Assembly (NCBI GenBank): GCA_030601665.1
Contig: JAUWBP010000002.1
Span: forward strand, 1 to 32,666
Length of the DNA stretch: 32,666 nucleotides
Direction of reading: 5' to 3'
DNA from: Hadesarchaea archaeon
GTDB taxonomy: Archaea; Hadarchaeota; Hadarchaeia; Hadarchaeales; Hadarchaeaceae
This document shows, piece after piece, positions 1 through 16,620 of the stretch (position 1 is the first letter of the stretch; each line of letters opens with the position of its first letter). The notes beneath the pieces are model-generated. The model had not been told where the DNA came from. It did not search any database and was given only the letters and a program-made list of their open reading frames with translations. A program made the position numbers and the translations under genes.

Positions 1-1
1 C

Positions 2-235
2 CGAAGGCGGGAAGGCGGGAAAGAGTCGCGTCTGTCTGTGGAGAGCGAGACCGAAGAGATGATCTTCGAAAATGAGTGGTTGAGAATGAGACTCTCCTTC
101 GACTTTCGAATCAAAAGCATGAAATTGAAAAAGGATTTCCGGGGAGAGTTTTCCTTGGTCGGCCCAGCGGAGATGTACGTAATCCTCAAGGGGGTTACCG
201 CCTCCTTACCTTTCCTGCCTTTTGCCCGAAGCTAA
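2..235 (+). CDS. Possible 3' end of a gene entering from the left edge (unknown product)
   Basis: Frame 2 is open from the window edge to TAA at 233-235 (..EMIFENEWLRMRLSFDFRIKSMKLKK..). No diagnostic motif. Confidence 0.3.
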   Translation, partial: RRREGGKESRLSVESETEEMIFENEWLRMRLSFDFRIKSMKLKKDFRGEFSLVGPAEMYVILKGVTASLPFLPFARS

Positions 236-413
236 TATCTCTGTTGAGGCTACCAGCACCCATCAGAGGAAAACCAGTGCACGAAAAAACCAACTCCTCC
301 AATGTGCTTCATCTGCGACCTACGGAATCCGGCGTGACAGAAACGGCCTTCTACGAGGGGCCCGAGGCAGGCGAGTGTTCGCACGGTCAGGGAAACTTCC
401 ACGGCTATCTCGT

Positions 414-427
414 GAAAGTTTTTATTG
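414..427 (+). promoter_or_regulatory. Putative BRE/TATA promoter of the ssnA-like gene
   Basis: AAAGTTTTTATTG about 40 nt upstream of ATG 465; GGAG at 451-454 as an RBS. Confidence 0.5.
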
Positions 428-464
428 CAACTAGTAAATAATGTAAAATAGGAGTGCTAAAAAT

Positions 465-1793
465 ATGGCAAGTTTAGCGATAGAAAACGGGCTAATTGTA
501 ACTATGGATAAGGAACGGCGGATTCTCAAGCGAGGAAACGTAGCTATCGAGGATGGGAAGATCGTAAGTGTTGAAAAGGCAGGGGAAGCTAGGAGCAAGT
601 ACCGGGCCGAGGAGATCATAGACGCAACGGGAAAAATAGTAATGCCCGGCCTAATATGTGCCCATCATCACCTCTATTCTACCTTTGCAAGGGGCATGGC
701 CATTCCTGGCGAACCAGCGAAGAATTTCGTTGAAATATTGGAGAAGCTCTGGTGGAAATTGGATAACGCCCTGACCAAAGAAGATATCTATTACAGCTCC
801 TTGATCCCCCTAATCGAATGCGTAAGAAATGGGACTACCACAATTATTGACCACCACGAGAGCCAATCTTATCAGAAGGGAAGTTTGGAAGAAATTGCCA
901 GAGCAGTAGAGGAAGTTGGAATTCGTGGCTCCCTCTGCTTGGGAACCTCTGACCGCTACGGAAGGGGTAAAGAAGGGGTGGATGAAAATGAACGCTTTCT
1001 TTCTCTCCTCAGTTCTCGATCGTCCCAACTTCTGAAGGGGTTGGTTGGTCTGCATGCCACCTTTACAGTAAACGACGATACATTGGATAAGTCGGTTAAA
1101 CTGGCAAAAAAATACGGGGTTGGAATTCACGTTCACTGCGCTGAGGACAAGGCTGACGAAGATGAAAATTTGAAAAAATATAATATGAGAGTGGTTGAGA
1201 GATTGAATTCGCATGAAGCTCTGGGAGAGAAGTCCATCGCTGTTCACTGTGTTCACGTCGATGAAAAAGAGATGGATATTTTGAAATCCACGAGAACTAA
1301 CGTGGTTCACAACCCTGAATCAAATATGAACAATGCCGTGGGCTGTGCCGATGTCCTAGGAATGATGGGAAATGGAATCGAGGTTGGCCTGGGCACCGAT
1401 GGAATGAGTTCAGATATGCTCTCTCAAATGAGATGTTCCTATCTCATCCATCGCCACGTAAAAAAGGACCCTCGGGTTGCATTTTTGGAAGCACCTGCAA
1501 TGCTACTGGACAACAACCCTAAAATTGTGAAGAGGGTCGCTGGCTGGAGAGTGGGAGAAATTGCAAAGGGTGCCTTGGCAGACATCATTTTAATTGATTA
1601 CCTTCCCCCCACCATCTTAAATGAGAATAACTTCCTAGGCCATCTGATCTTCGGTTTGGTTGATGCAACCGTAGACACGACAATATGTAATGGAAAAATT
1701 TTGATGCGGGATAAGAAACTGGTAGACTTGGACGAGAAATCCATCACCAAAAAGACTTCTCAATTGGCTTCGGAACTTTGGAAACGTTTATAG
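465..1793 (+). CDS. ssnA: SsnA-family metal-dependent amidohydrolase (putative aminohydrolase)
   Basis: PGLICAHHHLYSTFARG, LWWKLD, GTTTIIDHH, GLHATFT, HVHCAE, VHNPESNMNNAVG and GLGTDG match SsnA-type amidohydrolases; all metal ligands are present. Confidence 0.85.
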   Translation: MASLAIENGLIVTMDKERRILKRGNVAIEDGKIVSVEKAGEARSKYRAEEIIDATGKIVMPGLICAHHHLYSTFARGMAIPGEPAKNFVEILEKLWWKLDNALTKEDIYYSSLIPLIECVRNGTTTIIDHHESQSYQKGSLEEIARAVEEVGIRGSLCLGTSDRYGRGKEGVDENERFLSLLSSRSSQLLKGLVGLHATFTVNDDTLDKSVKLAKKYGVGIHVHCAEDKADEDENLKKYNMRVVERLNSHEALGEKSIAVHCVHVDEKEMDILKSTRTNVVHNPESNMNNAVGCADVLGMMGNGIEVGLGTDGMSSDMLSQMRCSYLIHRHVKKDPRVAFLEAPAMLLDNNPKIVKRVAGWRVGEIAKGALADIILIDYLPPTILNENNFLGHLIFGLVDATVDTTICNGKILMRDKKLVDLDEKSITKKTSQLASELWKRL

Positions 1794-1797
1794 ATGT

Positions 1798-2886
1798 TTA
1801 GAACCGGATCGCCCTCGTCGGGCAAACAGAAACACACATCCCACATCCATAACACTTAACTGGGTCGACCCTTGCAATTCGTCTCACCACTTTAGCCGCT
1901 TCGTAAACGCAGTACTGCTCGCAGAGCCCGCAGCCCGTGCATCTAGACGCTATGATCTCCGGTGGTTTAGCGGTAGTACGAAAAGGCTGCTCTGGCAGGT
2001 GGCGGAGCGCAATCCCCTTGAAATCCGCAATTGAGTTGTAGCCTTTGGCGCGCATGAACTTGACCATTCTATCTGCTATGAGCCCGTAGATTTTGTACCC
2101 TCGAATTATCGCTGCGGTTGAGAGTTGCACCGCTGAGGCCCCAAGCATGATGAATTCAATGGCATCGCGTTCATTACTGATTCCACCCACCCCGATGACC
2201 GGTATCTTCACCGCACGGCAAATGTCGGCCACACACCGCATCGCGAGCGGCTTGATGGCTGGGCCCGAAAGCCAACCGTAGCCGGAAACGCTTCCGAGCA
2301 TTGGCATCGTGTTTTCTATGTCAATTGCCAAGCCCGGCCCCAGCGCGTTTGTCGCCACTATTCCATCCGCCCCTGCCCCTTCCACCGCTCGCGCGAACTG
2401 GGCCACGTCGAATGCGCCCGGGCTGAGCTTCACGAACACTGGGATATCGACGACCTCTTTCGCCGCCTTCGTGGCTTCAGTCACTAGTTCCAAGTCCCTT
2501 CCGAGGTGTTGTGTCGATAGTTCAAGGGCATCCACTCCAGCCGCTTTTACCTTCGGGGCAACAGCTCGGATTTCATCGGCTTTGTAGCCCACGCTCGCTA
2601 TCAACGGCAGCCCCTTCTTTTTCGCCTTCGCATACTCGGAGCGGAGCCATTGCTCGAGTGGCAAATCGCTCCAGAGCTCAGCGTTCAGGATGCTATCTTT
2701 GACTTTCACCATGTTAGGGCGAGGCACATGGGCTGGGGAAACGCTCACCGTCTTCGCGACCAACCCGCCGGCGCCTCCATCAGCAGCTTTTACTAATGCA
2801 TCGCCATCGCGCACCGTCGGGCCAGCTGCAGGCAGAATGGGGTTGCGGAATTTTAAACCACATATTTCCACGGATAGGCTGACCAC
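1798..2886 (-). CDS. Dihydroorotate/dihydropyrimidine dehydrogenase-fold FMN oxidoreductase with C-terminal 2x[4Fe-4S] domain (PreA/YgfK-like)
   Basis: FRNPILPAAGP, AKTVS, VFVKLSP, GWLSGPAIKP, IGVGGI, GASAVQ; C-terminal CTGCGLCEQYC and CYGCGMCVSVCP. Confidence 0.85.
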   Translation of the reverse strand: MVSLSVEICGLKFRNPILPAAGPTVRDGDALVKAADGGAGGLVAKTVSVSPAHVPRPNMVKVKDSILNAELWSDLPLEQWLRSEYAKAKKKGLPLIASVGYKADEIRAVAPKVKAAGVDALELSTQHLGRDLELVTEATKAAKEVVDIPVFVKLSPGAFDVAQFARAVEGAGADGIVATNALGPGLAIDIENTMPMLGSVSGYGWLSGPAIKPLAMRCVADICRAVKIPVIGVGGISNERDAIEFIMLGASAVQLSTAAIIRGYKIYGLIADRMVKFMRAKGYNSIADFKGIALRHLPEQPFRTTAKPPEIIASRCTGCGLCEQYCVYEAAKVVRRIARVDPVKCYGCGMCVSVCPTRAIRF

Positions 2887-2890
2887 TCTA

Positions 2891-4240
2891 TCATCTCCGC
2901 CCTATCGCCCCAAGCTTCTGCCAGAGCTTCTCCGCCGATTTCCGCGACACCTTCACCGTCTCCGCTTCGTCGAGAGTCTGCATCTTTCGCTCGCGCATCA
3001 AGATTTTGCCACCGACGATGACCGTTTCGACATCATCGCCATCAATGGTGTTAACGATGTGTCCGACGACGCTCTCGGGACGCACGGGTGTAGGTGCGGT
3101 GGCTGGATTTATGATGATGATATCAGCTAGCTTCCCGGACTCAATCGAACCCAGCTCATTCCCCAACCCGTAGAGTTCCGCTCCACGGATCGTTGCCATC
3201 TCGAGTGCCTCCATGGATGAAATCACGCGGGGATCGCGGAGGGAAACCTTGTGCAACAGGAAGGCGGCACGGAGGTTCTCGAATCCGTCGAAAATATAAC
3301 CATCATTACCTAATCCCACAGGTATTCCCATCGAGAGCATTTTTACCACTGGTGCAACTCCGACCGCATTTAGCATGTTACTCAAGGGGTTGTGGGCCAC
3401 TTTTGCTCCGGTCTTTTTGAGGATTGCCAGCTCATCACCGTTGATTTGCACGCAATGAGCAAGCACGACATCTTGCGCGAGTAATCCTTCATCGTTCAGC
3501 CGTTCGATTGTGCGTTTGCCGAACTGCTCTAAACTGTGATAGAGGTCCACCAGCCCCTCGCAGGTGTGGATGGTTATGGGCACCTTGTAGCGACTCGCGA
3601 GCTCTCTGACATGGTGGAAAAGCTCGTCGGAACCCGTGAAAGAAGAGTGGATGCTGAACATCCCCTGCACCCGGCGCATGCGCTCCTTCTTGACCTTCCG
3701 GATGAATCGTTCATTCTCCTTCGTGCCCTTCGCCCCCTCAGCGTGGGTGTGACGCTCGGTTGCCTCAAACGCTATGATGCCCCGCATCCCCGATTGCTCG
3801 ACCGCGGCAGCGATCCGATCAAGCACGCCGGTTACGGCGTTCGGACCCGAGAAGGTGTCAGCAAACATGGTTGTACCAGTTTTGATGAACTCGAGGCAGG
3901 AGATAAGGGCACTCGCATACGCGTCCTCGCGAGTTATTGCCTCGTCCATTGGCCACCAGATACGCTGCAGAATCTGCGAGAAATCGGTAGGGGGCTCAAT
4001 CTTCAAAGGGGCGCCGCGCAAGAGTATGCCGTAGAGATGGGTGTGCGAGCAAATCAGGCCGGGCATGACTATTTTGCCGCGAGCGTCAATGACTTCTTCA
4101 GGCTTGCTTCTGGTTTTTGCTTCGCCGCGCTTGACCGAAACAATGCGGCCGTCCTCGACAGCAATCGAGCCATTAGCGATGATTCGACGATCCTTATCCA
4201 TCGTGAAAATCAAACCGTTTTTAATCAACAGGTCAACCAT
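2891..4240 (-). CDS. Second SsnA/MtaD-like amidohydrolase (nucleobase deaminase superfamily)
   Basis: PGLICSHTHLY, IHTCEG, LAHCV, AHNPLSNMLNAVG, GLGNDG, GKLADII. Start moved to ATG 4240 (MVDLLIKNG) by alignment with the paralog at 465. Confidence 0.88.
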   Translation of the reverse strand: MVDLLIKNGLIFTMDKDRRIIANGSIAVEDGRIVSVKRGEAKTRSKPEEVIDARGKIVMPGLICSHTHLYGILLRGAPLKIEPPTDFSQILQRIWWPMDEAITREDAYASALISCLEFIKTGTTMFADTFSGPNAVTGVLDRIAAAVEQSGMRGIIAFEATERHTHAEGAKGTKENERFIRKVKKERMRRVQGMFSIHSSFTGSDELFHHVRELASRYKVPITIHTCEGLVDLYHSLEQFGKRTIERLNDEGLLAQDVVLAHCVQINGDELAILKKTGAKVAHNPLSNMLNAVGVAPVVKMLSMGIPVGLGNDGYIFDGFENLRAAFLLHKVSLRDPRVISSMEALEMATIRGAELYGLGNELGSIESGKLADIIIINPATAPTPVRPESVVGHIVNTIDGDDVETVIVGGKILMRERKMQTLDEAETVKVSRKSAEKLWQKLGAIGRR

Positions 4241-4342
4241 CCAATCCCTAACAACAAAAACACCAGCACACATTTAAGCTTTCGGTGAAATGGCGAATCA
4301 AAGGTGAACCGCTCCCAAAAAGAAAAAGGTTGCCCGTGGCGG

Positions 4343-4378
4343 TTTATTTAAACCCCGTAAATTACTTGAGTATGGTGA
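4343..4378 (+). promoter_or_regulatory. TATA box and RBS of the histone-amidohydrolase unit
   Basis: TTTATTTAAA at 4343-4352; GGTGA at 4374-4378, 7 nt before ATG 4386. Confidence 0.55.
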
Positions 4379-4385
4379 TTTAGAT

Positions 4386-4598
4386 ATGCCAGAATTTTCA
4401 GCTTCCATAATGAATCAACTCATCCGAAAAGCGGGCGAAGTCCGCGTGTCGCGTAGCGCCGCCCTCGAGCTCAGCGCAGTCCTCGAGGAATATGCGATTG
4501 AGCTGTCAAAGGAGGCGATAAAGCTAACTAAACATCGCAGCGCGAAAACCGTAAACGAGAGTGATATTCGGGCAGCTGCATCAAGAATACGCGCATAA
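4386..4598 (+). CDS. Archaeal histone (HMf family, divergent variant)
   Basis: 70 aa; LIRKAGEVRVS..LEEYAIELSKEAIKLTKH..KTVNESDI aligns without gaps to the HMfA/B histone fold. Confidence 0.9.
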   Translation: MPEFSASIMNQLIRKAGEVRVSRSAALELSAVLEEYAIELSKEAIKLTKHRSAKTVNESDIRAAASRIRA

Positions 4599-4621
4599 CT
4601 TTGCCTTGACTAGGTGATGTT

Positions 4622-5956
4622 TTGGTCGATTTAGTTATTCGAAATGCGCGCTTAACCTTGCCCGAGGGAATCATCCGCGGAGAACTCGCGGTCGATAAAG
4701 GACGCATTTCTGAAATCGCTACGAGTGGGCTGCCCAAAGCCGATCTAGAAATCGATGCGAAAGAGAAAATTGTGATGCCTGGAGTTATCGACACCCACGT
4801 CCATTTCTATGATAGCCATTACCTCCCCCGAGAGGACTTTCAAAACGGTAGTGCCGCAGCCGCAGCGGGAGGCGTCACCAGCGTGATCATGATGCCCCTC
4901 GATACTCCGATGCTGACGCCAAGAACGATAAAAACTATCATCAAGCTCGGGCAGAATGAGAGCCTCATAGATTTCGCCCTCCACGCGGGAAACATGACCG
5001 CAGAGTCTATCAAAAATATTCCCAATATCGCCTCGCTCGGCATTAAATCATTCAAAGCGTTCACGTGTGCCCCCTATGGCATCAAAGACCGGATGTTGGA
5101 AGAGCTGATGACCGCGATAAAAAATGTTGACGGTACAATATTTGTCCATGCGGAGGACGACAAAGTTCTACAGAAACAAACCAAGCGGCTCCTTAAGGAA
5201 GGGCGGAAGGATCCATTAGCTCATACGGAATCACGCCCGAATGAAGCCGAAGAAAAAGCCGTTGCAAAAGTGATCAAGCTCACCCAAAGGACTGGCTGTA
5301 AATTGCATCTAGCCCACATCACGACACGTCAGGGTGCTGAGCTCGTCAAAAAGGCGAAGGTCAAGCGAGTGCCGCTAACTGCTGAAACATCTCCGCACTA
5401 CTTGTTTTTCACACAAAAAGACATGAAAAGGCTGGGGCCGTACCTGAAGGTGAACCCAGCGTTGAAGACGAGCGAGGATTGTACGGCGCTCTGGAAAGCA
5501 TTGTCCAAAGGAGTGATTGACATCGTCGCGACCGACCACGCTCCCGGCACTAAAGAGGAGAAGGAAATCGGGTGGAAAAATATCTGGACGGCGCAAATTG
5601 GGATACCTGGGGTAGAAACCCTGCTACCGCTCATGCTCGGCGAAGGCGTCGCAAAGGGCAGGCTGACGTTCGAGAGGCTGGTCGATGCCCTCTGCACCAA
5701 ACCCGCGCAGACCTTCGGCCTTTACCCGCGCAAAGGGGTCATCCGCGAGGGCTCTGACGCCGACCTCGTGCTCGTGGACCTCAAAAAAGAAGTAACGATA
5801 ACAGCTGAGAGATTGCACTACAAGGTTGGATGGACCCCCTACGAGGGAGTGGGAGTTAAAGGGGTGCCGGTGACGACAATCTCACGGGGCATTATAGTGG
5901 CTGAAGATGGGGATGTAGTCGGAAAACCAGGGCATGGACAGTTCCTGAGTAGATAG
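4622..5956 (+). CDS. Cyclic amidohydrolase (allantoinase/dihydropyrimidinase/dihydroorotase family)
   Basis: PGVIDTHVH, AAAAGGVT, FKAF (carbamylated Lys), VHAED, HLAHIT, ATDHAP, GSDADLV, GWTPYEG; TTG start preceded by GGTGA. Confidence 0.88.
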   Translation: MVDLVIRNARLTLPEGIIRGELAVDKGRISEIATSGLPKADLEIDAKEKIVMPGVIDTHVHFYDSHYLPREDFQNGSAAAAAGGVTSVIMMPLDTPMLTPRTIKTIIKLGQNESLIDFALHAGNMTAESIKNIPNIASLGIKSFKAFTCAPYGIKDRMLEELMTAIKNVDGTIFVHAEDDKVLQKQTKRLLKEGRKDPLAHTESRPNEAEEKAVAKVIKLTQRTGCKLHLAHITTRQGAELVKKAKVKRVPLTAETSPHYLFFTQKDMKRLGPYLKVNPALKTSEDCTALWKALSKGVIDIVATDHAPGTKEEKEIGWKNIWTAQIGIPGVETLLPLMLGEGVAKGRLTFERLVDALCTKPAQTFGLYPRKGVIREGSDADLVLVDLKKEVTITAERLHYKVGWTPYEGVGVKGVPVTTISRGIIVAEDGDVVGKPGHGQFLSR

Positions 5957-5970
5957 ATTCAAGCAAAATA

Positions 5971-7305
5971 TCAAACGCCTTTTTCAACCCTCGTGCGAGT
6001 TTTCCAGTAAGAGCGAAGCGCATCCAACGCTAGAACAGCTTTCTCTGGAGAGTCGTAAACGGGGATGTTTTTGCCCTTCACCGCCTCCCGCACCAGAACG
6101 CCAGCCCCCACTGCCATTGTCACGCTGACGACCGGCTTATCCTTAGACTTTTCCGCCACCTCCGCTATTGCTTGAACATCTTCGGGCTCGAGGAAACTCA
6201 ACTTGAGCTCGTTCATCACCACTACACCATCCACACCATGATCCGAAAGCACCTGTTCGAGGACGAACTTGTACCGATCGGCCTTCGCGCCGATGCCCAG
6301 GTCCACCCATTCCACAATGTTGATATCTTGATATTTCCTGGTGATCTTCTTCGTGACCTTATCAGAGAGCTTCGCCAACGCAAACTCCTTGCGGGAAAGG
6401 GCATCCGCAACCAAAGTCGCTGCTCCATCGGCATTGGTAACCACTGCCACCCGATCGCCCGGCATGGGGGGCTGTTTTGCCAATGCATCCGCAACTCCCA
6501 GGAGCTCCTCGACAATGTCAACCCGAATAGCTCCGACCTGTTTGAGATAAGCGGCGAATATTTTATCTCGCTCATCCTGCGCTGTGCCTCCCTTCATTAC
6601 GACGACAGGCTTCTTTTTCACCGCTTCACGAATCAACCCGAGAAACCTCCGCCCATCGCGAACGCTCTGCAAATAAATGCAAATTACTTTCGTTTCCTCG
6701 TCGTGCATTAAAAATTCGAGCAGGTCCGCCTCAGTGACATCGACACTGTCGCCAGTCGATGCAAACTTGCCCACACCCACACCGTGAAAACGGGCCCAAT
6801 CGAGTATCGCCATGCCAACTGCGCTATCCTGCGAGATCACTGCGATGCCTCCGCGTGAGGGCATGAAACCGCGCTCGAGTGTCGCGCACAGACCCTTCGA
6901 TGTGTTGATTACCCCCGCCGTCGCGTTCGGGCCGAGAATGCAGACCTTTCGCTTAGCGACCCCGCGCGCCAGTTCCTCACGCTGCTGTTGGTCAAAACCC
7001 CCGGCGACTAAAACAATCGCCTTCATTACAAGATTAAGTAAATTTCGCCAATTCTTCATGACGAGCTTTGAAGGGAGCACCACTACGGCGAGATCGCGTC
7101 CCTTTGGCACCTGATTCAAATTTTTGATGGCGCCCTCAAGTTTCCCGCTCAGGTCCACAACGTAGGTCTTGCCCTCGAAGCGATGCATATTGTGAACGAG
7201 CGAGTGAAAGAACGCTGGCGAAACTATACCTTCTCTAATCCCATCGGAGGCACCTACGAGCACGACTGACTTGGGCTCGAAAATCGCCTTAACTTCGTTA
7301 GACAT
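5971..7305 (-). CDS. acdA: Acetate--CoA ligase (ADP-forming) alpha-subunit homolog, degenerate active site
   Basis: IFEPKSVVLVGAS, DLAVVVLP, ILGPN, IAVISQ, KPVVVMKGG, RVAVVTN, IPVYDSPEKAV. The SHTG phospho-His motif is absent. ATG overlaps the acdB stop (TAATG). Confidence 0.8.
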   Translation of the reverse strand: MSNEVKAIFEPKSVVLVGASDGIREGIVSPAFFHSLVHNMHRFEGKTYVVDLSGKLEGAIKNLNQVPKGRDLAVVVLPSKLVMKNWRNLLNLVMKAIVLVAGGFDQQQREELARGVAKRKVCILGPNATAGVINTSKGLCATLERGFMPSRGGIAVISQDSAVGMAILDWARFHGVGVGKFASTGDSVDVTEADLLEFLMHDEETKVICIYLQSVRDGRRFLGLIREAVKKKPVVVMKGGTAQDERDKIFAAYLKQVGAIRVDIVEELLGVADALAKQPPMPGDRVAVVTNADGAATLVADALSRKEFALAKLSDKVTKKITRKYQDINIVEWVDLGIGAKADRYKFVLEQVLSDHGVDGVVVMNELKLSFLEPEDVQAIAEVAEKSKDKPVVSVTMAVGAGVLVREAVKGKNIPVYDSPEKAVLALDALRSYWKTRTRVEKGV

Positions 7306-8033
7306 TACTTGCTCTCCACAAGGATTATCCGGGCATCGGCTACCATTGCGCCCTTTCCGTCATCGAATGTAAAAATCGGGTTCAAATCCATCTCAGCTAT
7401 CTCGGAAAACTCATGTGCGAGCTGCCCGACCTTTTGAATGATGTCGACGAGCGCACCGACATCGGCCGGAGGCGTCCCCCGGATGCCCGCTAGGACCGGG
7501 TAGCCCTTGATCTCTTGAATCATTTCGCGCGCGTCCTCAGCACTGAGCGGGGCCAGCCTGAAACTGATGTCATCAAGCACCTCGACCCACACGCCGCCCA
7601 GTCCGAACATCACCGTGGCGCCGAAAGAGGGGTCCTGAAGAGCACCCACGATTACCTCGCGGGCGGGGGGGAGGTACTCCTGAATTGTCACCCCTAGGAT
7701 TTTTGCGTCTGGCTTGTATGCACGAGCGTTATCGATCAAATCGCCAAACGATTGTCTAATCTCCAGCTCCGAGCTCAACCCCACCCTGACGCCCTTCGCC
7801 TCGCTCTTATGGATGATGTCAGGGGAAGCAATTTTCAGAACGATAGGATAACGAACTTCTCGTGCAAATTTAACCGCTTCACTTATGTCGCGGGCTAGCT
7901 CCGTCCGGTTAACCGGCACCCCCCATGCAGCGAGAACCCGCTTAGACTCTAATTCCATCAGCTCACGTCTGCCCTCCTTGCGGGTTGAATTGAGGATTTC
8001 AGCCACTTTTCCCTTCTCTGCAGCCAAGCCCAT
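7305..8033 (-). CDS. acdB: Acetate--CoA ligase (ADP-forming) beta subunit, ATP-grasp
   Basis: YPIVLKIASPDIIHKSE, DPSFGATVMFGLGGVWVEVLDD, EMDLNP, DARI. Start is ATG 8033 or TTG 8027 (after GGTGA). Confidence 0.9.
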   Translation of the reverse strand: MGLAAEKGKVAEILNSTRKEGRRELMELESKRVLAAWGVPVNRTELARDISEAVKFAREVRYPIVLKIASPDIIHKSEAKGVRVGLSSELEIRQSFGDLIDNARAYKPDAKILGVTIQEYLPPAREVIVGALQDPSFGATVMFGLGGVWVEVLDDISFRLAPLSAEDAREMIQEIKGYPVLAGIRGTPPADVGALVDIIQKVGQLAHEFSEIAEMDLNPIFTFDDGKGAMVADARIILVESK

Positions 8034-8236
8034 CACCCAAGAACAAGCTAAATTGTGGCAAGTGCTATAAAGATTTTCCCTCAAATTACCAAAATCTGGG
8101 TATTTTTAACTCTTTTGACAGAAATAGCCATATATCCTTGCTTAAATAGTGAAATCAGGGAATATAGTTTTAAAAACTAAAAATAAAGGGCATATTAAGG
8201 GACTAAGGATTAGCTCAGAAGTAGAGAGCAGGGAAT

Positions 8237-16515: not shown

Positions 16516-16620
16516 GGGCTCGTGGTCTAGTGGTTATGAGGGAGTTGGCGTAGCCGCACCCTAACAAACGTCGCCTTGACATGGCGAAGTTCCGGGGTTC
16601 GAATCCCCGCGGGCCCACCA
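16516..16620 (+). tRNA. tRNA-Val(GAC) with a non-canonical intron (16539-16567); CCA encoded
   Basis: Acceptor GGGCTCG/CGGGCCC, A73; anticodon arm TCGCC-TTGACAT-GGCGA; T arm CGGGG-TTCGAAT-CCCCG. The D stem is restored after removing 29 nt. Confidence 0.92.
16539..16567 (+). other. tRNA-Val intron (D-stem, 23/24, 29 nt, strict BHB)
   Basis: Central helix GTTA/TAAC, bulges TG|A and AA|A, flanking helices GGG/CCC and TG/CG. Confidence 0.85.

Follow-up and report, generated by a model that had tools for sequence, protein, structure and literature searches.

Here we describe a gene cluster at the start of a 32.7-kb contig (JAUWBP010000002.1) from a Hadesarchaea archaeon, the whole of which, from its first to its last base, is referred to below as the window. 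The cluster encodes the C-terminal end of a YgfK-family reductase, a second reductase, two SsnA-family amidohydrolases and a cyclic amidohydrolase, and is, in our assessment, likely to represent, in archaeal form, the core of the pathway for reductive purine (uric acid/2,8-dioxopurine) degradation, here in a Hadarchaeota genome from marine sediment. This reading is based on family membership, phylogenetic placement, conserved adjacency, co-distribution with xanthine dehydrogenase (XDH)-type genes and the exclusion of pyrimidine biosynthesis, with substrates and activities assigned from homology and gene context. The evidence supports the view that the locus represents, in a new and archaeal form, a pathway that has been known since 2025.

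In the bacterial route, as laid out in the available portions of a research article and a preprint (PMC12507026; 10.1101/2025.04.24.650524), an XDH homologue reduces urate to 2,8-dioxopurine, which YgfK then dearomatises. In C. difficile, the place of YgfK is taken by UacX, a PF01180 protein that lacks a flavin adenine dinucleotide (FAD) domain and was assayed with reduced methyl viologen (PMC12507026). Together with SsnA, either YgfK or UacX converts 2,8-dioxopurine to ureidomethylhydantoin, whose hydantoin ring is then opened by HyuA (PMC12507026; the preprint, 10.1101/2025.04.24.650524, agrees). The ureido groups are removed by YgeW with carbamate kinase and by YgeY, and YgeX yields pyruvate (PMC12507026; 10.1101/2025.04.24.650524). 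As early as 2013, according to the accessible part of that report, an unknown clade of the dihydroorotate dehydrogenase (DHOD) family, denoted ‘X1’, was noticed to be encoded beside hyuA, ssnA and xdh genes (PMC4016543).

The pathway, solved in 2025, has been reported for bacteria, mainly host-associated ones. The word archaea is absent from the available text of both PMC12507026 and 10.1101/2025.04.24.650524, and the survey in the available part of the preprint lists bacterial taxa only. A sequence-only reading of the window, which drew attention to the locus, knew of no such pathway characterised in archaea; in agreement with this, no description of a reductive purine pathway in archaea was found in the papers searched, their supplements (sequence similarity network node lists and tables of metagenome-assembled genomes) lying outside the search. 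In marine-sediment and subsurface Hadarchaeota, the pathway would provide a testable route to ATP and nitrogen from nucleic-acid bases for energy-limited sediment archaea.

Two reductase and SsnA-family pairs at the contig end

All four genes that the sequence-only reading placed at positions 465 to 5956 were recovered there (open reading frames (ORFs), Pfam and NCBIfam). Its notion of a reductase plus ring-opening hydrolase set holds with regard to the set itself, but there are actually two reductase/hydrolase pairs of different origin. Of the module as a whole, it listed these four genes correctly and overlooked the 3' end of ygfK (2–232) as well as a histone gene (4386–4598), and the compactness that it ascribed to the module is not a matter of design: the contig breaks off within ygfK. 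The genes of main interest are the following.

2..232 (stop codon 233–235), + strand: 3' end of ygfK, last 77 codons, by tblastn; the remainder lies beyond the contig end
465..1793, + strand: ssnA1, SsnA-family amidohydrolase, by NF005540, TIGR03314, tree and GC content
1798..2886, − strand: UacX-type reductase, 362 amino acids (aa), PF01180 with a C-terminal 2x[4Fe-4S] domain and without an FAD/NAD domain
2891..4273, − strand: ssnA2, deep-branching archaeal SsnA-like amidohydrolase, by NCBIfam best family (SsnA), trees and adjacency
4622..5956, + strand: hydantoinase-type cyclic amidohydrolase, by match to the Protein Data Bank (PDB) entry 1GKR, metal ligands and absent PyrC residues

YgfK is defined here as an iron-sulfur (Fe-S) flavoprotein of about 1000 aa that scores above the TIGR03315 cut-off, of which the window holds the last 77 codons; no N-terminal part of YgfK is present anywhere in the assembly of the source genome (G000). 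By tblastn, the remnant is 97% identical over 77 aa to the C-terminus of the YgfK fragment of the nearest relative (G019) and 78% identical to residues 1021–1097 of the full-length protein of another Hadarchaeota genome (G030), which scores 1011 bits against the cut-off of 835. Over 1040 aa, E. coli YgfK shares 40% identity with the YgfK of a relative. After the end of ygfK, 229 bases precede ssnA1, and the tandem order is the same as in E. coli. An ORF at 76–441 (+, 121 aa) that overlaps the ygfK frame (2–232) in another frame has no family match and looks spurious.

By curated models and trees, SsnA1 is a true member of the SsnA family, the bacterial enzymes of which cleave the six-membered ring in reduced 2,8-dioxopurine. 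It scores 562.1 bits with the SsnA equivalog NF005540 (cut-off 444) and 524.9 bits with TIGR03314 (cut-off 455.5), passing both, and is 33% identical to E. coli SsnA and 44–63% identical to bacterial SsnA. When relatives were gathered by scanning the genome collection with an alignment of SsnA1, the closest ones outside Hadarchaeota were bacterial, namely Elusimicrobia (63%), Clostridia (57–59%), Anaerolineae (54–58%) and Clostridium/Desulfosporosinus (44–50%). In a 102-row tree, seven Hadarchaeota SsnA1 sequences form one clade nested in bacterial SsnA, with E. coli SsnA in the same true-SsnA clade. That clade, SsnA1 included, comprises 82 of the 102 rows, with a Shimodaira–Hasegawa-like approximate likelihood ratio test (SH-aLRT) support of 98, and 32 of the 59 rows in a second tree (SH-aLRT 99). 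The SsnA1 of one genome (G040) is placed apart, among Bacillota, which suggests more than one transfer. The GC content of ssnA1 is 45.4%, and 48.8% at third codon positions, vs 52–57% and 60–65%, respectively, in four neighbours (the genes for the UacX-type reductase, SsnA2, the HyuA-like protein and the alpha subunit of an ADP-forming acyl-CoA synthetase (ACD)). Because ssnA1 nests within bacterial SsnA and is low in GC, transfer from bacteria is suggested, and the ygfK-ssnA1 pair as a whole looks to have been acquired from that source. The SsnA-like assignment that the sequence-only reading gave to 465–1793 is therefore borne out by the two curated cut-offs and the position within the bacterial clade.

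The reductase encoded at 1798–2886 had been proposed to be a flavin mononucleotide (FMN)/Fe-S enzyme of the DHOD fold, and its domains agree: PF01180 (DHO_dh) is matched with 143 bits over residues 4–278, and Fer4 families cover residues 308–361, where a ferredoxin domain with 8 Cys forms two CxxCxxCxxxC motifs. The protein contains no Pyr_redox domain. It remains under every PyrD and PreA equivalog cut-off (PyrD 1B, 215 < 269; PreA, 213 < 335; archaeal PyrD, 144 < 330). In 8 of 80 fetched loci, including those of Paraclostridium, Clostridium, Cetobacterium and Acidobacteriaceae, the neighbour of ssnA encodes a protein of 362–371 aa that is 43–51% identical to it, and with seven bacterial SsnA-adjacent reductases it forms one clade (SH-aLRT 98) apart from PreA and canonical PyrD, in line with the expectation that it would not cluster with biosynthetic PyrD. 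The catalytic-Cys loop of PyrD B, dihydropyrimidine dehydrogenase and PreA is missing in this reductase and in its bacterial SsnA-adjacent relatives alike; there is a 9-residue gap where Lactococcus PyrD B, the best PDB match (131 bits), has its SCPN loop, whereas the PreA proteins of Hadarchaeota relatives retain SFSCP. A homologue search with the reductase returned only close relatives (at least 55% identity), of which the named ones are almost all from Hadarchaeota or MSBL1. On these grounds, we read the protein as a UacX-type enzyme, by comparison with the SsnA-adjacent bacterial reductases rather than with the assayed C. difficile UacX, and it is probably ferredoxin-dependent.

SsnA2, encoded 4 bases away from the UacX-type gene, has alignable HxH and HxxE metal/catalytic motifs and retains 52 of 84 conserved columns and 16 of the 34 signature columns, that is, residues conserved in true SsnA but not in related deaminases. 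Among the residues replaced are S72, E285, N351 and Y379 (SsnA1 numbering). Since the remaining signature columns are not kept, we class the protein as SsnA-like and not as SsnA. In the 102-row tree, the SsnA2 sequences make up a clade of their own that is sister to all true SsnA and nearer to those than to GuaD or MtaD-type proteins. The 59-row tree, to which the nearest 50%-identity representatives and one Haloarcula protein were added, recovers an SsnA superclade in which true SsnA is joined by three further groups, those of SsnA2, an Asgard-labelled pair and a pair from Haloarcula, whose branching relative to each other is not resolved. As had been predicted, neither SsnA-family protein clusters with MtaD: SsnA1 falls in bacterial SsnA, and SsnA2 is sister to it and not to MtaD/GuaD-type deaminases.

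For the cyclic amidohydrolase, the best solved relative is the Arthrobacter L-hydantoinase 1GKR, with 311 bits vs about 188 bits for dihydroorotases. The binuclear metal ligands (HxH, a carboxylated Lys, two His and Asp) are kept and align with 1GKR and other hydantoinases. Where the canonical PyrC of the lineage has HVHFR and MPN, this protein has HVHFY and MPL, with Tyr for Arg and Leu for Asn; we take the Arg of HxHxR and the Asn of MPN to be the substrate-binding residues of dihydroorotase. The earlier description of the enzyme as a cyclic amidohydrolase devoid of such residues is accurate. It lies below the equivalog cut-offs for D-hydantoinase (TIGR02033, 324.3 < 393.25), allantoinase (326 < 358) and PRK02382 (370.6 < 452), and above the broad pyrC_multi domain model only (331 bits, cut-off 279); by comparison, a bacterial SsnA-linked HyuA scores 613 on the D-hydantoinase model. 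Identity is 30% to E. coli HyuA and 38% to the partner of a haloarchaeal SsnA-like gene. By these comparisons, the protein is an analogue and not an ortholog of bacterial HyuA, and it is predicted to open the five-membered hydantoin ring.

Two further features flank or interrupt the cluster.

4386..4598, + strand: archaeal histone gene, 70 aa, PF00808 45 bits (cut-off 21.4)
5971–7305 and 7305–8084, − strand: ACD alpha and beta subunits, by Pfam and NCBIfam

The histone gene fills a seeming 348-base intergenic gap between ssnA2 and the cyclic amidohydrolase gene. Each of the 7 Hadarchaeota loci aligned has it at the same position, its substitutions follow a coding-type pattern, and it is probably a syntenic bystander. 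ORF lists with an 80-aa cut-off overlook this 70-aa gene. Both ACD subunits are syntenic with the cluster in six genomes (G018, G019, G024, G026, G030 and G010), and the beta subunit alone in G050 and G054. ACD is a conserved neighbour with a putative functional link to the cluster, as a possible outlet from acetyl-CoA to acetate and ATP.

Conservation of the cluster and its companion genes

The window is the entire contig C61 of G000, an assembly of 881 kb in 111 contigs that is rated 80% complete; related public records bear the titles Hadesarchaea or Hadarchaeota. The contig also carries archaeal housekeeping genes (aCPSF1, FtsZ, Spt5, L11/L1/L10, proteasome beta, glycerol-1-phosphate dehydrogenase and HypD, by Pfam/NCBIfam), so the cluster cannot be put down to mis-binning of bacterial DNA. 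All 30 bins are covered by Logan contigs (4 runs, 4 studies), which also span the gene junctions, and three of them extend 726 to 3842 bases beyond window base 1. The gene order is no assembly artefact, contiguity being all that the Logan contig layout speaks to. The lineage is known from metagenomes of marine sediment and the subsurface, and near-identical DNA was found in runs of 11 studies, no RNA run being listed for positions 1–6000. One contig of run X1 joins position 274 to position 1721 with 18 other letters between, at a depth of 14 vs about 47. This junction would correspond to a variant without ssnA1, but the shorter side fits 28 bases only, which is weak, and the contig may stem from another organism. 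At 16516–16617 (+), Rfam finds a tRNA that spans 102 bases vs a 71-position model and probably holds an intron; ARAGORN, unlike Rfam, reports no tRNA in the window.

We compared the locus across 66 Hadarchaeota genomes, which, as relatives, are not independent samples; adjacency was counted by hand among the matches listed, and these counts are lower bounds. True SsnA, above cut-off, is present in 12 of the 66. In at least 43, a UacX-type gene is the immediate neighbour of an SsnA-family gene, and in at least 34 the hydantoinase-like gene is there too, so that the predicted co-occurrence of the genes in other genomes is confirmed for both the pair and the triad. Wherever examined in the phylum, ssnA2 adjoins the UacX-type reductase. 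Ten fetched loci share the order ACD beta, ACD alpha, hydantoinase-like, ssnA2, UacX-type, optionally followed by ssnA1 and a second reductase. Of the locus, it is the UacX-type/SsnA2/hydantoinase triad that is old and spread through the phylum. The second reductase beside ssnA1 is YgfK in G019, G030, G031 and the window, and PreA (466 bits, cut-off 335) with a GltD-like PreT in G018, G026, G027 and G040; G050 and G054 have no second reductase in the region fetched. A single phylum thus swaps three reductase types (YgfK, PreA+PreT and UacX-type) ahead of SsnA.

Several loci contain further candidate components. Those of G050 and G054 add an ornithine carbamoyltransferase-like (OTC-like) carbamoyltransferase (70% identical to the protein on contig C24 of G000), an adenine deaminase, a ThrC-like pyridoxal phosphate (PLP) enzyme and a carbamate kinase (402 bits, cut-off 358). 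In G010, carbamate kinase lies beside the triad, and contig C6 of G037 carries XDH, two OTC-like genes, an SsnA-like gene and a PreA-like gene. Of the 66 genomes, 29 have XDH-type genes (12 of 12 with true SsnA vs 17 of 54 others) and 28 have carbamate kinase (9 of 12 with true SsnA vs 19 of 54 others). As a separate observation, G037 and its relative G038 have 13 and 10 XDH-family molybdenum (Mo)-binding genes and 12 and 16 SsnA-family matches, respectively, an expansion of heterocycle hydroxylases and amidohydrolases within one genus.

G000 itself encodes two XDH-type Mo enzymes, on contigs C41 and C15, the latter 39% identical to E. coli XdhD and 34% to XdhA, along with an adenine deaminase (608 bits, cut-off 472) and a uridine phosphorylase-like protein (275.5 bits, just under the 280.3 cut-off). 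Contig C24 bears an OTC-like carbamoyltransferase gene beside genes for a ThrC-like enzyme and a 190-aa protein; the OTC-like carbamoyltransferases are 33% identical to YgeW. In G019, contig C43 has the order XDH, MoaB-like, MocA/YgfJ-like, XdhC-like, ygfK, and its XDH is 93% identical to the one on C41 of G000, which stops just past the MoaB-like gene; judging from this synteny, C41, a gap and C61 are probably contiguous in G000. Contig C40 of G000 ends within the ornithine carbamoyltransferase gene that, in G019, is followed by carbamate kinase.

Three side observations touch these companion contigs. Two divergent AOR-family (tungsten-type) oxidoreductases, scoring 233–280 bits vs a cut-off of 868, are encoded on C15 (L023:1088-3040), directly adjoining the XdhD-like Mo enzyme, and on C24 (L021:299-2191), three genes from the OTC-like/ThrC-like pair. 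The 190-aa protein belongs to a set of 190–200-aa proteins without a family match (L021:6063-6635 on C24, L123:2127-2693, L027:6690-7295 and L034:16662-17237) that have an N-terminal membrane helix, a coiled-coil-like middle and a C-terminal part resembling a winged helix; homologues flank the cluster, beside UacX-type or PreT genes, in G010, G026, G040, G050 and G054, and the protein may be a regulator of the cluster. MtaD/DadD-type paralogs are encoded on C77 (L025:7425-9004), beside S-adenosylhomocysteine (SAH) hydrolase, and on C30 (L024:6594-9905), near a uridine phosphorylase-like gene.

Outside the phylum, the closest named relatives of SsnA2 include genes on haloarchaeal megaplasmids. 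On pNG700 of Haloarcula marismortui (L124, 266896-273881), an SsnA-like gene whose product is 37% identical to SsnA2 and 31% to SsnA1 is divergent from a hydantoinase-like gene whose product is 38% identical to that of the window, and the neighbours encode a ThrC-like protein, an NCS2 permease (36% to XanQ), an LLM-class flavin oxidoreductase and a BMP-family ABC transporter. The same pair is found on pHTUR01 of Haloterrigena turkmenica (L125, 198704-214639) with genes for ThrC-like, LLM, NADPH-dependent F420 reductase, D-aminoacylase, Zn-dependent hydrolase, and XDH-type and 2Fe-2S proteins. The Haloarcula SsnA-like protein is matched by 28 plasmid records at E<=1e-40, at least 15 of them haloarchaeal by a tally of listed genera. 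An F420-type variant of the pathway is noted for Chloroflexota in the available text of PMC12507026, and the pNG700 and pHTUR01 clusters are probably F420-type reductive purine clusters. Because they resemble this variant, a purine-type substrate for the archaeal SsnA-like/hydantoinase-like pairs is supported. For Haloferax, the accessible part of PMC8305020 proposes an oxidative, uricase-type purine pathway and not a reductive one. The related cluster in cultured haloarchaea (Haloarcula, Haloterrigena and Natrinema) makes genetics feasible.

Proposed route and competing readings

In the route that we propose, XDH-family molybdoenzymes encoded on other contigs would supply an oxopurine, most likely 2,8-dioxopurine, to be dearomatised by either YgfK (NAD(P)H type) or the UacX-type FMN/Fe-S reductase (low-potential, ferredoxin type). 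The six-membered ring would be opened by the partner SsnA, that is, SsnA1 with YgfK and SsnA2 with the UacX-type enzyme, and the hydantoinase-type enzyme would open the remaining hydantoin ring to give a diureido acid. OTC-like carbamoyltransferases and carbamate kinase could then turn the ureido groups into ATP, with a ThrC-like PLP enzyme replacing YgeX and releasing pyruvate and ammonia; the neighbouring ACD could add further ATP. The earlier proposal of a reductase plus ring-opening hydrolase set for a purine (or pyrimidine) is supported: we observed neither clustering with PyrD, PyrC or MtaD, nor a lack of co-occurrence in other genomes, nor a lack of companion genes.

A number of observations weigh against a purine route of this kind. 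SsnA2, which the sequence-only reading had called SsnA-like, has SsnA as its best family but is under both cut-offs (402.5 < 444 for NF005540; 386.2 < 455.5 for TIGR03314), a sister lineage rather than true SsnA, and it is without 18 of the 34 signature residues, including the Glu of the HNPESNM motif; given these failed cut-offs and absent residues, its substrate may differ. The hydantoinase-like protein, below the D-hydantoinase cut-off, is only 25–38% identical to hydantoinase-family proteins of bacterial SsnA loci. The triad also occurs in genomes that lack an XDH-type gene, carbamate kinase, a C24-type carbamoyltransferase and true SsnA or YgfK and that have a full pyrimidine cluster, such as G024 (94% complete); as it is present without XDH, carbamate kinase and SsnA1, it is independent of the rest of the proposed pathway, and here too the substrate may differ. 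Carbamate kinase adjoins an ornithine carbamoyltransferase-type gene in G019 (bona fide, 451 bits, cut-off 281) and, by hand reading, in 14 further genomes; the enzyme may serve arginine or citrulline metabolism instead and is not specific evidence. The C24 ThrC-like protein passes the threonine synthase cut-off (335 > 303). The tree, which includes no housekeeping bacterial ThrC, does not reveal a pathway-specific ThrC-like clade: the SsnA1-adjacent proteins of G050 and G054 fall together with the C24 protein, but so do two other ThrC paralogs of G000, and cluster-linked proteins are not set apart from housekeeping threonine synthase. The link of ThrC-like enzymes to the pathway is one of gene neighbourhood only.

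The remaining steps had been supposed to be encoded elsewhere in the genome. This proved correct for XDH, carbamoyltransferases, carbamate kinase, adenine deaminase and Mo-cofactor maturation genes, which are present in G000 or its nearest relative, and not for YgeX, YgeY, YqeC, SelD and an NCS2 permease, which were not found. The searches of the 80%-complete G000 assembly, in which blanks do not prove absence, gave a single weak YgeX-like match for the E. coli queries YgeX, YgeY, YqeB, YqeC, XanQ, UacT and GhxQ (tblastn), no match to the NCS2 permease family (PF00860, 0 matches), a single weak 25-bit match to the YgeY-type M20 family (PF01546), SelD matches all under cut-off and no carbamate kinase. 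These blanks likewise count against a complete pathway in G000.

That the genes are ordinary housekeeping ones lying together by chance, namely PyrD and PyrC of pyrimidine biosynthesis and MtaD/DadD-type nucleoside deaminases, is barely credible, even though the reductase is publicly annotated as ‘dihydroorotate dehydrogenase B catalytic subunit’, the score of the cyclic amidohydrolase exceeds that required by the broad pyrC_multi model (331 bits, cut-off 279) and the only DHO_dh-family and DHOase-like genes in the G000 assembly are those of this locus. A separate canonical PyrD (~300 aa) is encoded in 39 of the 66 genomes (hand count), and PyrB above cut-off in 41; in G024, pyrD, pyrC, pyrB and pyrF form one 6-kb cluster, and the triad is present as well. 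The 25 genomes without PyrB include G000, and five of them are 90–92% complete; the G000 assembly has no PyrB and no match to orotidine 5'-monophosphate (OMP) decarboxylase (PF00215, 0 matches). The argument rests on PyrB and not on PyrF, because the OMPdecase family also matches longer fused proteins and a 115–120-bit class in genomes without PyrB/C/D, including G019. The proteins fall short of every PyrD and PyrC equivalog cut-off and have neither the catalytic Cys loop nor the HxHxR/MPN residues, and the MtaD-type paralogs on C30 and, beside SAH hydrolase, on C77 indicate that housekeeping deaminase roles are already filled outside the cluster. By these comparisons, biosynthetic PyrC and PyrD are excluded. 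Metabolic reconstructions would be corrected accordingly, as genes labelled dihydroorotate dehydrogenase or resembling dihydroorotase would wrongly point to pyrimidine synthesis in those 25 of the 66 genomes that lack PyrB. A catabolic pyrimidine role is a stronger contender, albeit an unlikely one: ygfK-ssnA1 would be the only purine module, and the triad a reductive pyrimidine pathway in which the UacX-type enzyme reduces uracil or thymine like PydA, the hydantoinase-like protein is a dihydropyrimidinase and SsnA2 is a cytosine deaminase or a stand-in for ureidopropionase, possibly leading to beta-alanine. The reductase has the DHOD/PreA fold and Fe-S clusters, and a ferredoxin-dependent, FAD-less PydA exists in clostridia according to the available text of PMC7332683; but the catalytic-Cys loop kept by PreA-type uracil reductases, including the PreA of Hadarchaeota relatives, is missing, the protein clades not with PreA but with bacterial reductases beside true SsnA in XDH-containing loci, and it has one ferredoxin domain (8 Cys), whereas PydAc has two (16 Cys; PMC7332683, same portion). 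The cyclic amidohydrolase does belong to the hydantoinase/dihydropyrimidinase group, many genomes have the triad but no XDH or carbamate kinase, roughly half of the SsnA signature is missing in SsnA2 and a uridine phosphorylase-like gene is present in G000; on the other side, SsnA2 lies in the SsnA superclade and not with deaminases, and the haloarchaeal counterparts adjoin an XDH gene (pHTUR01) and a xanthine/urate-type permease gene (pNG700).

It is quite unlikely, in turn, that the triad handles some other N-heterocycle, distinct from 2,8-dioxopurine and outside the pyrimidines (for instance a different oxopurine, a fragment of a pterin or flavin, or a compound of the hydantoin type), with a transferred ygfK-ssnA1 inserted beside a loosely related resident module. 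The independence of the triad from XDH, carbamate kinase and SsnA1 across the phylum would fit, as would the fact that SsnA2 and the hydantoinase-like protein are not orthologs of assayed bacterial enzymes and the narrowness of the SsnA2 lineage: among 1.84 billion representatives, one 50%-identity cluster exceeds 43% identity to SsnA2. However, the reductase is orthologous to bacterial SsnA-adjacent reductases, and in G050 and G054 the genes for SsnA1, carbamate kinase, adenine deaminase and an OTC-like protein lie in one locus with the triad, whose UacX-type enzyme is the sole reductase available to SsnA1 in the region fetched from these genomes. A broader evolutionary scenario strikes us as doubtful but conceivable, namely that the triad is an ancient archaeal system for breaking down rings, operating with neither XDH nor carbamate kinase and acting on something other than 2,8-dioxopurine, and that the purine pathway of gut bacteria was perhaps built on an archaeal-type scaffold. 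In this scenario, genomes with added XDH, YgfK or PreAT, SsnA1, several OTC-like carbamoyltransferases and carbamate kinase could, as there is no YgeY, phosphorolyse both ureido groups of the diureido acid and so gain up to two ATP per purine, which would matter for energy-starved sediment archaea. The SsnA2, Asgard-type and haloarchaeal SsnA-like lineages branch deeply and lie beyond the true-SsnA clade, a clade that is bacterial in the sample except for the transferred Hadarchaeota copies; because of this deep branching, derivation of the gut-bacterial pathway from an archaeal-type scaffold may be considered. The reading that we favour remains an archaeal reductive purine pathway, and it is with this reading that known systems are compared below.

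Comparison with known systems

In E. coli K-12, the cluster runs ygeW-ygeX-ygeY-hyuA-yqeA ... yqeB-yqeC-mocA-ygfK-ssnA-ygfM-xdhD (PMC12507026 and 10.1101/2025.04.24.650524, available portions). The Hadarchaeota locus is like it in that ygfK lies directly 5' of ssnA, SsnA1 scores above the SsnA equivalog cut-off, MocA-like, XdhC-family and XDH-type genes lie upstream of ygfK in G019, and a carbamoyltransferase and carbamate kinase are present in the lineage. It differs in its archaeal sediment/subsurface host, in a second reductase/SsnA-like pair, in a cyclic amidohydrolase that is 30% identical to HyuA and no ortholog of it, in ThrC-like and OTC-like enzymes in place of YgeX, YgeY and YqeC, and in that no NCS2 permease was found in G000. 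With the C. difficile UacX variant, as described in the accessible part of PMC12507026, it shares a PF01180 FMN and Fe-S protein without an FAD/NAD domain, encoded beside SsnA-family and cyclic amidohydrolase genes; in contrast, the partner of the window's reductase is SsnA2, of a sister lineage and not true SsnA, and no UacY-type D-aminoacylase was seen in the annotated Hadarchaeota loci.

PyrD (class 1B) and PyrC have the same folds as the window's reductase and cyclic amidohydrolase, but separate canonical copies exist in the phylum, and the window proteins miss both the cut-offs and the active-site residues. The reductive pyrimidine (Pyd) pathway, which according to the available text of PMC7332683 consists of PydA/PreAT or PydAc, the dihydropyrimidinase PydB and the ureidopropionase PydC, draws on the same superfamilies and likewise reduces a ring before opening it hydrolytically, and some relatives have true PreA and PreT beside ssnA1; unlike its reductases, that of the window is without the catalytic Cys loop and has a single ferredoxin domain instead of two, and SsnA-family partners mark the purine route. 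The F420-type variant also combines SsnA-family, hydantoinase-like and ThrC-like PLP genes, and no named context is closer to the ssnA2 and hydantoinase-like genes than that of the haloarchaeal pair; the difference is in the reductase, an LLM-class flavin oxidoreductase there, with an F420 reductase gene in pHTUR01, and UacX-type and YgfK-type enzymes in the window.

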